From Kofleriaceae bacterium (GTDB lineage: Bacteria; Myxococcota_A; Polyangia; Haliangiales; Haliangiaceae): a DNA stretch of 20,381 nucleotides. The translations under genes were made by a program, and so were the position numbers. Within the stretch, counting starts at the first letter, position 1. Every line of letters begins with the position of its first letter. The DNA is taken from assembly GCA_046597055.1 (NCBI GenBank), contig JBKJLC010000217.1:1-20381 (forward strand). The letters are read 5' to 3'. This document shows positions 1,081-20,201 of the stretch, piece by piece. The notes under the pieces are model-generated. The model made no database searches. It worked only from the letters and a program-made list of their open reading frames with translations, and had not been told where the DNA came from.

Positions 1081-3366
<2,286 letters not shown>

Positions 3367-3372
3367 CCGGCG

Positions 3373-4881
<1,509 letters not shown>

Positions 4882-4891
4882 GCAAGGCGGG

Positions 4892-5194
4892 TCAGGACCG
4901 GACCGAGAACCCGCCGACGTCGTCGCCAAGCGGGACGTCCTCGGTCTCGACCGCGGTGACCACGGCGAACGGCGGGCCCTTCGCGCACCAGGCGAGCAGG
5001 ACCTCGACGCTGTCCGGATCTCCCTGAGCCTCGAGGAGCACCGAGCCATCGGCCTGGTTCTTCACCCACCCGGTCAGGCCCAGGCGCAAGGCCTCGGCGC
5101 GGGTGGCTGCCCGGTAGGACACACCCTGGACCCGGCCCCGGGCTCGTGCCCGGACCCGACGAACGTTCGAGGCGCCGCCTTGACCCGCGTCCAT
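4892..5194 (-). CDS. acyP: Acylphosphatase
   Basis: Signature GRVQGVSYR...[14 protein letters not shown]...GPPFAVV. ATG 5194 is preceded by AGGGAG (SD-like) and TAGAGT (-10-like); 100 aa. Confidence 0.93.
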
Positions 5195-5273
5195 GTAACT
5201 CCCTACTCTAGCAGGGAGACCAGGCCGGGCCGCCGCGCCTTCGCCTCCGCCCTCCTTTCCCGCCGTTCCGACC

Positions 5274-6584
5274 TTGCCCTCGACCCCGCCCAGCTCAAGC
5301 GCCACCACCAACGGTGGTTCGTCCCCGTCCGCGACCGCCGGGGTCGCGCTCGAGCTTGCGGGGCTGCGTCGCATGCGCGCCGACGAGCTTTGCACGCTGG
5401 CCGAGCGGCTCGGCGTCGGCGATGCGCGCGAGCTGCGCCGGCAGGAGCTGGTGCTCGCGGTGCTCGAGGCCCACGCCGATCGCCGCGGCGAGACCCACGC
5501 CGACGGCGTGCTCGAGATCCTGCCCGACGGGTTCGGCTTCCTGCGCAGCCCCGAGAACGGCTACTCGCCCGGCATCGACGACATTTACGTGTCGCCGTCG
5601 CAGATCCGCCGGTTCGGCATGCGCACCGGCGATCTGGTGCGCGGCACCGTGCGCGCGCCCAAGGAGACCGAGCGCTACTTCGCGCTGCTCCGGGTCGAGG
5701 CGATCGAGGGCGGCGTGCCCGATCAGCACCCACAGCTCACCGACTTCGAGGACCGCATCGCGATGCCCGCCAACCGGAGCTTCGAGCTCGGCAGCGGCTC
5801 GGCGGCGGTGCGGTTCGCGGATCTGCACTGTCCGCTCGGCTTCGGCCAGCGCGTCCTGGTCAAGGCGCCGCCGCGCGCCGGCAAGACCGCGCTGTTGATC
5901 GAGCTGGCCCAGGCGGTCCACCGCGCGCACCCCACCGCGCAGACCACGCTGGTCGCGGTCGATCTGCGGCCCGAGGACGCCGACGAGGTCCAGCGCCAGC
6001 TCGGCGATCTCGCGGCGGTGTCGACGATGGCCGATCCGCCGGCGCGCCACGTCCAGCTGGTCGAGCTGGTGGTCGAGCGCGGCAAGCGTGCCGCCGAGCG
6101 CGGTCAAGACGCCGTGGTCGTGATCGACTCGCTGGGCCGGCTGGCGCGCGCGATCAACGTGGTGGTGCCGCCGACCGGGCGCACGCTGATCGGCGCGCTC
6201 GACGCGGCCGCGGTCAGCCGGGTCAAGCGCTACCTCGCCGCCGCCCGCCGCCTCGACACCGGCGGCAGCCTGACCGTGATCGCCAGCCTCGCCACCGAGA
6301 GCGGCGCTCGCATCGACGAGGTCCTCGCCGACGAGCTGGCCGAGACCGCGGCGGTCGAGCTCTACCTCGACCGCGCCCGCGCCTTCGACCACGGCCACGC
6401 GGTGGTCGACCCGGCGCGCTCGTTCGTGCGCCACGCCGACCTCCTGCTCGGCGAGCGAGCCCGTGCCTGGCGTCGGTTCGGCGCCGCGCCGCCGTCCCCC
6501 GACGAGGTGCTCGCCGCCCTGCCCGGCGCGGCCGATCGCGCGGCGCTGCTGGCGGCCCTCGTGCCCCCCTCGTCCGCGGACTAG
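5274..6584 (+). CDS. rho: Transcription termination factor Rho homologue with a degenerate ATPase domain
   Basis: Rho RNA-binding domain GVLEILPDGFGFLRS...DDIYVSPSQIRRFGMRTGD...ERYFALL; Walker A GQRVLVKAPPRAGKT; IDSLGRLARAIN; GGSLTVIA. The canonical DERPEE is DLRPED and EFKGTGN is ELAETAA. The TTG start is uncertain, but the start must precede ~5350 by alignment to the Rho N-terminal helix. Confidence 0.88.
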   Translation: MPSTPPSSSATTNGGSSPSATAGVALELAGLRRMRADELCTLAERLGVGDARELRRQELVLAVLEAHADRRGETHADGVLEILPDGFGFLRSPENGYSPGIDDIYVSPSQIRRFGMRTGDLVRGTVRAPKETERYFALLRVEAIEGGVPDQHPQLTDFEDRIAMPANRSFELGSGSAAVRFADLHCPLGFGQRVLVKAPPRAGKTALLIELAQAVHRAHPTAQTTLVAVDLRPEDADEVQRQLGDLAAVSTMADPPARHVQLVELVVERGKRAAERGQDAVVVIDSLGRLARAINVVVPPTGRTLIGALDAAAVSRVKRYLAAARRLDTGGSLTVIASLATESGARIDEVLADELAETAAVELYLDRARAFDHGHAVVDPARSFVRHADLLLGERARAWRRFGAAPPSPDEVLAALPGAADRAALLAALVPPSSAD

Positions 6585-6587
6585 GCC

Positions 6588-7433
6588 ATGGCCCGCGTAC
6601 TGCGGCTGCCGGCGCGAGGGACGCTGATCGTCTGCACCGATCTGCAGGGCTGTCTGCGCGACTTCCACCGCATCGTCGAGGTGTTCGACGACGAGATGAC
6701 CGCCAGCGGCGACGCCCACCTGCTGTTCACCGGCGATCTCATCCACGGGCCGCACCTCGACCCGTGCGACTGGCCCGACTTCCTCGGCGAGTTCTACCGC
6801 GACGCGTCGGGCGAGCTGATCGACGAGCTGGTCGTGATGTCGCGCCGTCACCCCGGGCGCATCCACGCCCTGGTCGGCAACCACGAGCACGGCCACATCG
6901 GCGGCCCGCACACCGCCAAGTTCGCCGTCGACGAGGTCATCGTCCTCGAGCACCAGCTCGGCCCGCACGCGTCGGCCCGCCTGCGCGAGGTGCTGCGCGA
7001 GTTCGCGCTGGTCGCGATCGCCCCGTGCGGCGCGATCTTCACCCACGGCGCACCGGCGGCGGTGGTCAACTCGGTCGCCGACATCGAGGCGGCCAGCCTC
7101 GACGGCTACGACTTCGGCAGCCCGATCGACATCCTCGACACCCCGGTGATCGGCCCGATCCTGTGGGCCCGCTCGGCCCAGCCCGAGGTCGCCGCCCGGT
7201 TCGTGCGCGCGCTCGGCGGCACCTTCTGCATCTACGGTCACGACGTGATCCCCGAGGGCTTCGAGATGGTCGGCGACGAGCAGATGGTCGTGTCGACCAG
7301 CTTCGGCGTGTTCGACGCCCGCAAGGTCTACGTGCGGCTCGACCTCGCGGCCCGCTACCGCTCGGTGCGCGAGCTGCGCTTCGGCCACGAGATCGTGCCG
7401 CTGTACCCCGAGCTGGTCGGCCCGACCGGCTGA
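6588..7433 (+). CDS. Calcineurin-like metallophosphoesterase (PPP/ApaH-like), atypical motifs
   Basis: Motifs TDLQG, GDLIHG, GNHE, THG, LWAR and YGHD appear in the canonical order. Starts 3 nt after the rho-like stop. Confidence 0.88.
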
Positions 7434-7436
7434 CGC

Positions 7437-8114
7437 TCACGGCGGCGGCGCAGCGCCGCCATCACGACCCCCGCCACCGCCACCCCCGATGCCGCCGGGA
7501 CCGGGGTCGCCCCGGTCGCCGCGCCGCCGACCCGGGCCGCGCGCCTGCATCCCGGCCGACACCTCCTCGACGGTCACGAAGCCGTCCTGGTCGCCGTCGA
7601 GCGTCGTGAAGTCGAACGCACCGCGACCGCCGTCGCCACCGCCGGCGACCGCGAGCTCGGCCGGGGTCAGCTTGCCGTCGCGATCGCCGTCGAGGTGATC
7701 GACCATGCCGGCGACCCGCGCCTCGCGCATGATCTCACGCTCGTCGGGCGACAGCTGGCCGTCCTTGTCGGCGTCGTACATCTCACGCTCTTCCTGGCGG
7801 CGCTCGTTGCGGCGCTGCCCGACCTCCTCGCGGGTCGGCCGGTCGTCAGGCACCTGGGCGTCAGCGGGGTCGCGATCCCGGCCCGGGAACGGCCGCGGCG
7901 GCACCGGCAGGCGCGGGGGCTCGGCCGCGCGCGCCGAGGGCGGCTGCCCCGGGGCCACGGTGGAGCCGGCTGCCGGCTTGGCCGCCTCGTCCTTCTTGCA
8001 CGCGGCGAGCGCGAGCGTGGCGAGCGTGGCGGTCAGCGCCGCGCCCCAGCGCGCGCGCCGCACTAGCGCCCCCGCCCACGGCGGACGTAGCCTCGGTGGT
8101 AGCGATGGGTCCAC
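7437..8114 (-). CDS. EF-hand calcium-binding lipoprotein
   Basis: Lipobox LALAAC-KKD; three DxDxDG loops (DADKDGQLSPDE, DGDRDGKLTPAE, DGDQDGFVTVEE). Start placed at GTG 8114 because TATGAT lies 6 nt upstream; the start is uncertain. Confidence 0.8.
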   Translation of the reverse strand: MDPSLPPRLRPPWAGALVRRARWGAALTATLATLALAACKKDEAAKPAAGSTVAPGQPPSARAAEPPRLPVPPRPFPGRDRDPADAQVPDDRPTREEVGQRRNERRQEEREMYDADKDGQLSPDEREIMREARVAGMVDHLDGDRDGKLTPAELAVAGGGDGGRGAFDFTTLDGDQDGFVTVEEVSAGMQARGPGRRRGDRGDPGPGGIGGGGGGGRDGGAAPPP

Positions 8115-8325
8115 GGGCCGATCATAGCGTCGGCCGGGCCCGGCGCTCGTCGGGGTAGCCACCGAGCGTCCTCGACCAAGGTGCCCGACCTATCGCAACC
8201 CAGCGAAATCCGGGGTGGAACACGCTTTCCCAGACGCTGGCTAGATCGGCCGGGGCCAATCTGCTACAAGTCCCGCCTTCCCGACACCCGGGACACGCAG
8301 TTCCGGCACCGGAGAAAGAGGCGCT

Positions 8326-8610
8326 ATGAAGGACACCATCGGTCACCCGCACTATCGCCCCAGCAAGATCAGCTGTGCTTGTGGCGGCTCCTACGACACC
8401 TTCTCGACCCGCGGCGACTTCGCGGTCGAGATCTGCGCCAAGTGCCATCCGTTCTACACGGGCCAGCAGAAGCTGATGGACACCGCGGGCCGCATCGACC
8501 GGTTCCGCAAGCGCTACGGCCAGACCGCGCCGGTCGTCGAGGCCGCCCCGGCCCCCGCCGCCGCCGCGCCGGCCGCCGCCGCGCCGGCCGCCTCCGACAC
8601 GACCAAGTAG
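8326..8610 (+). CDS. rpmE: 50S ribosomal protein L31 (Zn-binding type) with an Ala/Pro-rich C-terminal tail
   Basis: HPHY...CACG...[33 protein letters not shown]-like GAGG upstream; precedes prfA. Confidence 0.97.
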
Positions 8611-8662
8611 GGCGGCCGTCCCGTCGGCGTTCGCGCCTGCGGTCGTGCGATGAGGACGTGCC

Positions 8663-9754
<1,092 letters not shown>

Positions 9755-15785: not shown

Positions 15786-15828
15786 CGGCCGCGGTTTCGC
15801 GCCCGGCGCTCGCGTATACTGCTTGCCC

Positions 15829-16808
<980 letters not shown>

Positions 16809-16809
<1 letters not shown>

Positions 16810-17939
16810 TGGCCACGGCGGCGCCGGTGCGGACCCGCGCGCCGACGCGCTGGCAGCGCGCGATGCGCCGCCTGCGCCCGCCGCGGCGGCTGTCGTTCAC
16901 CCGCGAGGGCCGCTGGTTCGTGTTCCTCTCGATCGCGATCGGCATCGCCGCGATCAACACCGGCAACAACCTCCTCTACTTGCTGCTGTCGTGGCTGCTG
17001 TCGTTCATCATCGCGTCGGGGGTGCTGTCCGAGGTCACGATGCGCGGCCTCGGCGTGACCCGGCGGGCACCGCCCCAGGTGTTCGCCGGTCAGCCGTTCC
17101 TGATGGAGATCGCGGTCGAGAACCAGAAGGCGGGCACCGCGAGCTACTCGATCGAGATCGAGGACCTGCTCGACGGCCGACCGCTCGACAAGAAGTGCTA
17201 CTTCCTCAAGATCCCGCCGGGGCGGACCCAGCGCACGTCGTACCGCCACACGTTCACCCGACGCGGGCTGTACCGCTTCGACGGGTTCCGGATCGCGACC
17301 CGGTTCCCGTTCACCCTCTTCCGCAAGTCGCGCGACGTCGAGAGCGCGAGCGAGGTGCTGGTGTTCCCGCGCATCGCCACGATGAGTCGGCCGCCGCCGC
17401 GCCCGCGCACGGTCGGCGTGGGCGCCAGCGCCCGGCTCGGTCGCCGCGGTGAGTTCTTCGGGCTGCGCGAGTGGCGCGACGGCGACGACCGCCGCGACAT
17501 CCACTGGCGCTCGACCGCACGCTCGGGCCGGGTGATGGTGCGCGAGCTGCAAGACGAGCTCGAGCGGCAGGTGACGATCGCGGTCGACAACGCGCTGCCG
17601 GCCCAGGTCGTGCGTGCGCTCGCCGCCGGCGACCGCCTGCGCGAGGACGCCCCGATCGCCGACGCGCTCGAGCGCGCGATCTCGACCGCGGCGAGCCTGG
17701 CCGCGACCTACCTCGAGGCGGGCTGGGCGGTCGGCCTGGCCGCCCGCGGCGCCCGGGTGCCGCTGGCGGTCGGCAAGCCGCAGCTGACCCGGATCCTGCG
17801 CGAGCTCGCGCTGCTGGCCACGGTCACCGACGACGTCGCGATGGCCGAGCTCGACGGCCGCCACGATCGCGTGCTGGTGGTGCCCGCCGAGGTCGCCGCC
17901 GCCGGCCGACCCGCCGCCGATCATGTCCTCCACGCCTGA
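16809..17939 (+). CDS. DUF58-family protein (MoxR partner) with N-terminal TM hairpin
   Basis: [50 protein letters not shown] overlap with moxR. Confidence 0.93.
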
Positions 17940-17945
17940 CCTCCC

Positions 17946-20201
<2,256 letters not shown>

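Follow-up and report, generated by a model that had tools for sequence, protein, structure and literature searches.

The window, as we term the whole 20,381 nt stretch of DNA analysed, carries a motor-degenerate orthologue of rho as a single unbroken frame of 436 codons, flanked by the genes and containing the features listed in Table 1. The gene has a GC3 of 0.94, compared with 0.91-0.97 for five of its neighbours, which bears out the uninterrupted frame and normal codon bias described in an earlier reading made from the letters of the DNA (henceforth the sequence-only reading). Matches to the Pfam families Rho_N and Rho_RNA_bind, and a weak match to ATP-synt_ab, are found within the frame in the canonical order. 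When searched with protein family profiles, the product scored 357 bits against TIGR00767, below the curated cut-off of 509, and 356 against the looser NF006886 model, above its cut-off of 315. An AlphaFold model informed by 59 homologues had a pLDDT of 94 and TM-scores of 0.86-0.90 against E. coli Rho.

Table 1. Features of the rho locus in the window; residues are numbered by E. coli Rho where a letter and number are given together
Feature	Position	Strand	Evidence
acylphosphatase, conserved upstream whether rho is canonical, degenerate or missing	4892..5194	-	
candidate sigma-70-type promoter, TTGACC-N18-TACTCT	5180..5209	+	motif recurs in 13/14 genus members
rho, 436 aa, sole rho found in the source genome	5274..6584	+	profile searches, tblastn, model
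N-terminal extension, Ser/Pro/Thr/Ala-rich, about 25 aa	5274..5348	+	
Rho_N helical domain, residues 31-70	5364..5483	+	PF07498, 32.6 bits
primary RNA-binding (OB-fold) domain, residues 77-149, contact residues all kept	5502..5720	+	PF07497, 106 bits
RecA-like motor domain, intact fold, catalytically degenerate	5808..6422	+	PF00006, 41 bits; model
Walker A G-K-T kept; adenine-contacting M186 is Ala	5880..5891	+	alignment
catalytic Glu position (E. coli E211) is Leu	5964..5966	+	L/V/M/I in 41/41 clade proteins
K336-G337 replaced by Ala-Glu	6339..6344	+	position 337 acidic in 40/40 clade proteins covering the position
arginine finger (R366) kept	6429..6431	+	alignment
metallophosphoesterase, conserved downstream neighbour, present also where rho is canonical or absent	6588..7433	+	
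rpmE (L31) and prfA, which mark the ancestral rho locus	8326..9754	+	

The order acylphosphatase, rho, metallophosphoesterase, rpmE, prfA is common to a relative with a canonical rho (G024), to other genomes with degenerate copies and, minus rho itself, to genomes lacking the gene. The gene is hence an orthologue at the ancestral locus, vertically inherited rather than duplicated; a vertical family clade was not rejected by the AU test (p = 0.154), yet is absent from the free Rho tree. Upstream of the locus, a membrane histidine kinase and a sigma-54 response regulator (1081-4881, forward strand) are conserved in the genus. An EF-hand protein (7437-8162, reverse strand) lies between the phosphoesterase and rpmE, and among the loci checked was matched only in G004 and G012. 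Further downstream, genes for a MoxR-type AAA ATPase, a DUF58 protein and a transglutaminase-like membrane protein lie in a row (15823-20201, forward strand) as an ordinary operon.

Translation probably starts at the TTG at 5274 rather than at the ATG at 5373, as in 14 of 14 cases an in-frame start precedes the conserved LELxxLRR helix by 22-35 codons; one of the 14 genus members with upstream sequence lacks the downstream ATG. The candidate promoter lies upstream of rho in all but one of these 14, taking the form TTGACA in G023, G152 and G040, whilst a consensus promoter scan made no call at it. Because the motif and the start of the divergent acylphosphatase gene overlap, its conservation may partly reflect the ribosome-binding site of the latter. 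The leader and N-terminal extension are rich in C (C 0.49, G 0.28): the region comprising the leader and the first 25 codons (5210-5348, forward strand) is C-rich, G-poor and rut-like in all motif-bearing genus members, and it is possible that the protein regulates its own synthesis by binding there. Similar C-rich leaders precede rho in canonical relatives.

Alignment with E. coli Rho, as encoded by NC_000913.3 and used for residue numbering throughout, recovered each of the substitutions named in the sequence-only reading. The catalytic glutamate E211 is replaced by L231, encoded by CTG at 5964-5966; F232-D233-E234 has become M-A-D (STFDEP to STMADP), the Q-loop T286-G287-G288 is I-G-A, and E334-F-K336-G337-T is E-L-A-E-T (EFKGT to ELAET, 6333-6347). 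In the adenine pocket, F355 corresponds to H375 and M186 to A206, two positions that hold the adenine in Rho (PMC8828861), although base stacking could still be possible with histidine. Both the secondary site and the coupling network are degraded, with V284, T286, G288, K336 and G337 all changed; K326 is an arginine, as it also is in canonical myxobacterial Rho. The residues kept are K184, T185, D210, R212, D265, R269, R272 and R366, so that the Walker A lysine and threonine, D265, the arginine valve and the arginine finger are all present, as had been claimed of Walker A, D265, R269 and the finger. Equally well founded was the claim of a highly conserved RNA-binding domain: at what we take, from earlier E. 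coli work, to be the 17 residues of the primary site that contact RNA, all 17 are identical to those of E. coli Rho.

The pattern extends beyond this one genome. In 41 homologues forming the surrounding clade (P0002-P0042, a set overlapping in part with the genes of the genomes examined), position 211 is leucine in 27, valine in 12, and methionine and isoleucine in one each, with none having glutamate. Every full sequence of the genus clade retains K184, T/S185, R212, D265, R269, R366 and the R-loop arginine. An acidic residue occupies position 337 in all 40 proteins of this clade that cover it, and likewise in each of the 120 proteins of another degenerate clade (f39), in which the Walker A motif is dead, having K184R in 110 and T185V in 97 of the 120 sequences. 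E211 is retained in 100 of these 120, and the RNA-contact residues are invariant at 11 of 11 tested positions.

Engineered replacement of the same glutamate (E211A in E. coli, E386A in Mycobacterium tuberculosis) leaves ATP binding, RNA binding and oligomeric state intact, whilst abolishing ATPase, helicase and termination activities (PMC4499133). By this comparison, the protein in the window very probably does not hydrolyse ATP. It might instead be a slow but working motor, with the invariant Glu357, at the position of E. coli G337, entering the neighbouring subunit's site and replacing E211 as the base to support weak termination. The invariance of the other motor residues in the genus and of the acidic residue at 337 would suit such a role, and G337 and E211 both form part of the lining of the bicyclomycin pocket (PMC11347177). 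However, the acidic residue is equally fixed in the f39 clade, where the Walker A motif is dead and E211 mostly kept, hence it does not track the loss of E211; furthermore, the adenine contacts M186 and F355 have been lost or deleted, with changes at K336 and in the Q-loop as well. We therefore regard a slow motor as unlikely. An analogy between position 337 and the VISIT-DG motif of the F1 alpha subunit was also considered, and found no direct support in the accessible text of PMC3268026.

The source genome, that of a soil bacterium (G000; 8.4 Mb, 94% complete, 7.6% contamination), has a single rho by profile search, tblastn and a six-frame motif scan. Neither a second rho nor a motif-bearing fragment was found with tblastn, the six-frame motif scan or TIGR00767, the additional hits being weak (21-73 bits). 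Fifteen of 16 congeners within the Kofleriaceae, one of them 99% complete, have one degenerate copy each, the two matches in G009 being the contig-end halves of one gene, and no canonical or second rho was detected in any of the 16. The same is true of all 29 family members with a degenerate gene, in which no canonical second copy was found and the two double matches were halves of one gene. The sequence-only reading had proposed that the protein could co-assemble with canonical Rho hexamers and poison them, or occupy rut sites against canonical Rho as a chromosomal anti-terminator. Mixed rings may form in vitro, given the retention of the fold and of probable interface residues, and a single assembly that is 94% complete could miss a gene; nevertheless, with a sole copy that is the ancestral orthologue, there is no canonical Rho to poison, and the absence of one recurs across the congeners and the family. 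This proposal is thus largely refuted and we consider it highly improbable. An inhibitor with a role like that of Psu or Rof would need a canonical Rho as its target, and none was found in the source genome.

Estimates of dN/dS by the GY94 method, across the nine genomes with all three genes, were 0.065 for the RNA-binding domain, 0.095 for the motor and 0.106 for the 28 C-terminal codons, with 0.077 for prfA and 0.060 for the phosphoesterase. With 14 sequences, the corresponding values for the RNA-binding domain, motor and C-terminus were 0.052, 0.086 and 0.18. As synonymous sites are near saturation, these figures indicate strong constraint rather than exact rates. No stop codons interrupt the Rho domains in 16 genus matches, dN/dS is far from one, and the exceptions are an internal deletion in G010 and, in a different genus, a single frameshift in G041 that may be a sequencing error. 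Purifying selection thus acts on the source rho, which is no decaying pseudogene; the argument against simple decay made in the sequence-only reading holds, with per-domain values of 0.065-0.11 matching those of prfA and the next gene. Together with the loss of E211 and the retention of the contact residues, this supports the view of the protein as a probable RNA-binding pseudo-enzyme. Relative to RpoB, the motor evolves at 0.5-0.7 times the rate in three canonical pairs and at 4.7-6.1 times in three genus pairs, whilst the RNA-binding core changes from 0.9-1.0 to 2.1-3.1 times; the C-terminal part is the fastest-decaying region.

Whilst that view of the protein stands, it had overlooked both how widely the degenerate form occurs in related lineages and the accompanying loss of rho from most of the family. 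Only 32 of 138 family genomes match TIGR00767: two canonical (G024 and G144), 29 degenerate, spread over seven genera, and one divergent fragment with intact catalytic residues at a contig edge in G043 (L214). This fragment may have originated through transfer or contamination. The other 106 genomes, including all 91 of one neighbouring genus, have no match to this profile; many are incomplete metagenome-assembled genomes, yet 53 of the 73 best-quality family genomes are also without one. Single absences can be assembly gaps, as in G027, which at first seems to lack rho, although a 3' end resembling that of a canonical gene lies at the edge of a contig. No stand-alone RNA-binding remnant scored above the cut-off in the rho-less genomes, beyond the 32 rho genes themselves.

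Remnants of the gene itself were found. In the congener G010 (L182:2430-2652), an 880 bp internal deletion joins approximately codon 58 to codon 352, whilst in G048 (L174:5034-5159) a collapsed remnant includes canonical-looking GKTMLLQ and STFDES pieces, suggesting loss straight from a near-canonical gene. These remnants, and the 106 of 138 genomes without a match, indicate that the gene is dispensable. When 24 genomes were placed in an RpoB tree, both canonical carriers fell within groups of degenerate and rho-less genomes, which implies repeated decay and loss, and degenerate and rho-less genomes came out as sisters. The upstream acylphosphatase was also not found in G010, another ORF being in its place. 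Other arrangements seen include two rho copies in G030 (L215, L030), one with K184Q, and, in a neighbouring family, a sole rho in G025 (L213) with K184R and the entire Q-loop deleted. Within the same class, rho was detected in two of 16 genomes of family f10 and in none of 15 of family f12, with completeness of 90% or more throughout. Haliangium ochraceum is reported to lack Rho (PMC11347177); the scarcity in f10 and f12 makes the loss of Rho in the class far wider than this one species in print.

In a sample of 221 genomes from the phylum, 172 matched TIGR00767, 136 of them above the cut-off. Of 33 other genomes with a match below it, 24 were examined and two contig-edge fragments dropped; in each of the remaining 22 the one Rho present is full-length and is missing one or more of K184, T/S185, E211, R212, D265 and R366. 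A pooled set of 47 sequences from 14 degenerate lineages was assembled, with partial sequences and L022, L030, L323 and L324 left out. In this pool, retention of the positions that do not vary among canonical Rhos is 0.91 for the RNA-binding domain, 0.57 for the motor and 0.40 for the C-terminus. The 17 residues we assume to contact RNA are kept at 0.93-1.00, as against 0.39 for K184, 0.47 for E211 and 0.04 for K336. All but one of the 47 sequences lack at least one of the six core catalytic residues, and those lost differ between lineages. Within the motor, R173, R212-P213-E214, H239, D265, R299 and R305, which we take to be subunit-interface residues, are kept at 0.92-1.00. Selection appears to preserve RNA binding and this presumed set of interface residues. 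In Rho gene trees the degenerate sequences cluster with one another, as would be expected of long branches, and such trees therefore cannot serve to count origins; the independence of the decay events is instead drawn from the species tree, synteny and the differing lesions.

It could be argued that these genes are merely on the way to being lost: termination is no longer needed, the motor is wearing away, and what constraint is left concerns only folding and the avoidance of a harmful product. The remnants in G010 and G048, the complete absence of rho from the 91 genomes of the neighbouring genus, the sister relationship of degenerate and rho-less genomes, and a roughly nine-fold higher rate in the motor are all in keeping with such a transition. 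Set against it are the lack of stops over the Rho domains in 16 genus matches, a dN/dS equal to that of prfA, the conserved upstream TTGACC-N18-TACTCT motif, and the retention across 14 lineages of solvent-facing RNA-contact residues, beyond the needs of folding. We consequently think it quite unlikely that transit to loss is the whole explanation.

No genomic correlate of the state of Rho was evident among the features compared. In the 21 NusG loci aligned, out of 26, no difference was seen according to whether rho was canonical, degenerate or absent, and C/G skew was not linked to Rho state in either rpoB (24 genomes) or sampled coding DNA (11 genomes). A crude caller of low power found 0-1.9 intrinsic terminators per 100 genes in all Rho classes (samples of 68-500 kb from 11 genomes), with no compensating rise in degenerate or rho-less genomes. 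Across these samples, which comprise L243-L322 and G000, hairpins with U-tracts followed at most two in 100 genes, even where rho is absent. RNase J was not found with TIGR00649 in any of five genomes; RNase E/G was present in all five and Mfd in four, neither discriminating by Rho state. The source genome has both Mfd and NusG.

The number of related lineages having a sole, motor-degenerate Rho that would still grip RNA suggests a second job for Rho that needs no motor. The explanation we favour, at a probability of roughly 0.55, is that a selected, ATPase-independent RNA-binding role exists, that at least 14 groups of the phylum, and some Actinomycetota according to published tables, live on a sole motor-dead Rho, and that in several of them an acidic residue at 337 has arisen convergently and would lock the ring without ATP, termination proceeding by a route not yet described. 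The organism's own inherited Rho would have lost ATP hydrolysis and translocation, and with them classical transcription termination, and would have been retained for a task requiring RNA binding alone. The subunits would still assemble into a ring, with the acidic residue at 337 pairing with the neighbouring subunit's retained arginines in place of phosphate and so fixing the interface.

As to what such a ring does, we infer a passive clamp on ribosome-free, C-rich single-stranded RNA, whether antisense, untranslated or possibly its own C-rich leader, that would prevent the RNA re-annealing to DNA as R-loops and either expose it to, or shield it from, decay by RNase E. Links between Rho, R-loop control and degradosomes have been reviewed (PMC12360218). 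We give this specific role, limiting R-loops or routing RNA to decay, an even chance; counting against it are the dispensability of the gene and the fact that the genus preserves more motor residues than would be expected of a passive clamp. A modest benefit of this kind could explain why lineages losing Rho termination keep the degenerate form for a long time, with some then deleting the gene.

RNA binding without a motor might alternatively serve termination directly, the protein docking on elongating polymerase in the open stand-by mode, reading rut-like RNA and pausing or inactivating the complex allosterically, with release left to Mfd or another factor. The stand-by complex uses the N-terminal face of Rho and an open, catalytically inactive ring (PMC12360218); it is the N-terminal face that is conserved here whilst the C-terminal part decays fastest, and Mfd and NusG are both encoded in the source genome. 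However, termination by stand-by complexes has not been demonstrated and they may be off-pathway (PMC12360218), the catalytic mutant of M. tuberculosis Rho releases transcripts inefficiently (PMC4499133), and NusG is unchanged whether rho is canonical, degenerate or absent. This too seems to us unlikely.

In its three-domain layout, fold, primary site and ancestral locus, and in its Walker A lysine, D265, arginine valve and arginine finger, the protein resembles canonical Rho (E. coli; TIGR00767; PDB 3ICE and 1PV4), from which it differs in lacking the catalytic glutamate and K336, in its altered Q-loop and adenine pocket, and in a shortened, divergent C-terminus. Its lesion is that of the E211A and E386A mutants (PMC4499133), but natural, fixed in the genus, selected, and in the cell's only Rho. 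The closest published parallels are in Table S9 of PMC11347177, which according to its text holds 294 sequences; five rows have a changed E211, from two Leucobacter, Nocardioides seonyuensis, Tropheryma whipplei and Mariniblastus. In the Leucobacter, N. seonyuensis and T. whipplei proteins, E211 is A or I and K184 is also changed, and N. seonyuensis and T. whipplei are listed with a single Rho in their rows. These Rhos belong to another phylum, being from cultured Actinomycetota, and were classed as functional by the presence of domains, the ATPase domain being called highly conserved; in the available text of that paper, changes at E211 and K184 are discussed only as variants of the bicyclomycin pocket, with no comment on catalysis.

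Another atypical form is the short Rho paralogue (NF041509, 'Group B' or Type 4); the protein in the window differs in being full-length with an N-terminal domain, in not being a second copy, and in scoring 236 against that model's cut-off of 628. The 'Rho-like' proteins of Baekduia and Conexibacter consist of N-terminal and RNA-binding parts, and so keep RNA binding without a motor domain. The alpha subunit of F1-ATPase is a RecA-fold ring subunit that binds nucleotide and lacks the catalytic glutamate; it alternates with catalytic beta subunits, whereas no catalytic partner for the protein described here was found in the genome. Full-text searches, in a literature largely free of subscription papers, turned up no account of a sole Rho that is motor-dead and under selection.

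ATP hydrolysis has been described as mandatory for termination, and the motor domain of Rho as highly conserved. A natural, selected and sole Rho without the catalytic glutamate would separate RNA binding from motor action in living cells, and thereby give a direct handle on whether Rho works usefully without translocating, as bears on the stand-by model, R-loop control and the links to RNA decay. These lineages would also reveal the order in which Rho is lost, beginning with the motor and ending with the RNA-binding domain, and would show that a working Rho is not essential to large, GC-rich genomes even where recognisable intrinsic terminators are few. If they do run on a motor-dead Rho, then genome surveys that count domains overstate the extent of Rho-dependent termination.
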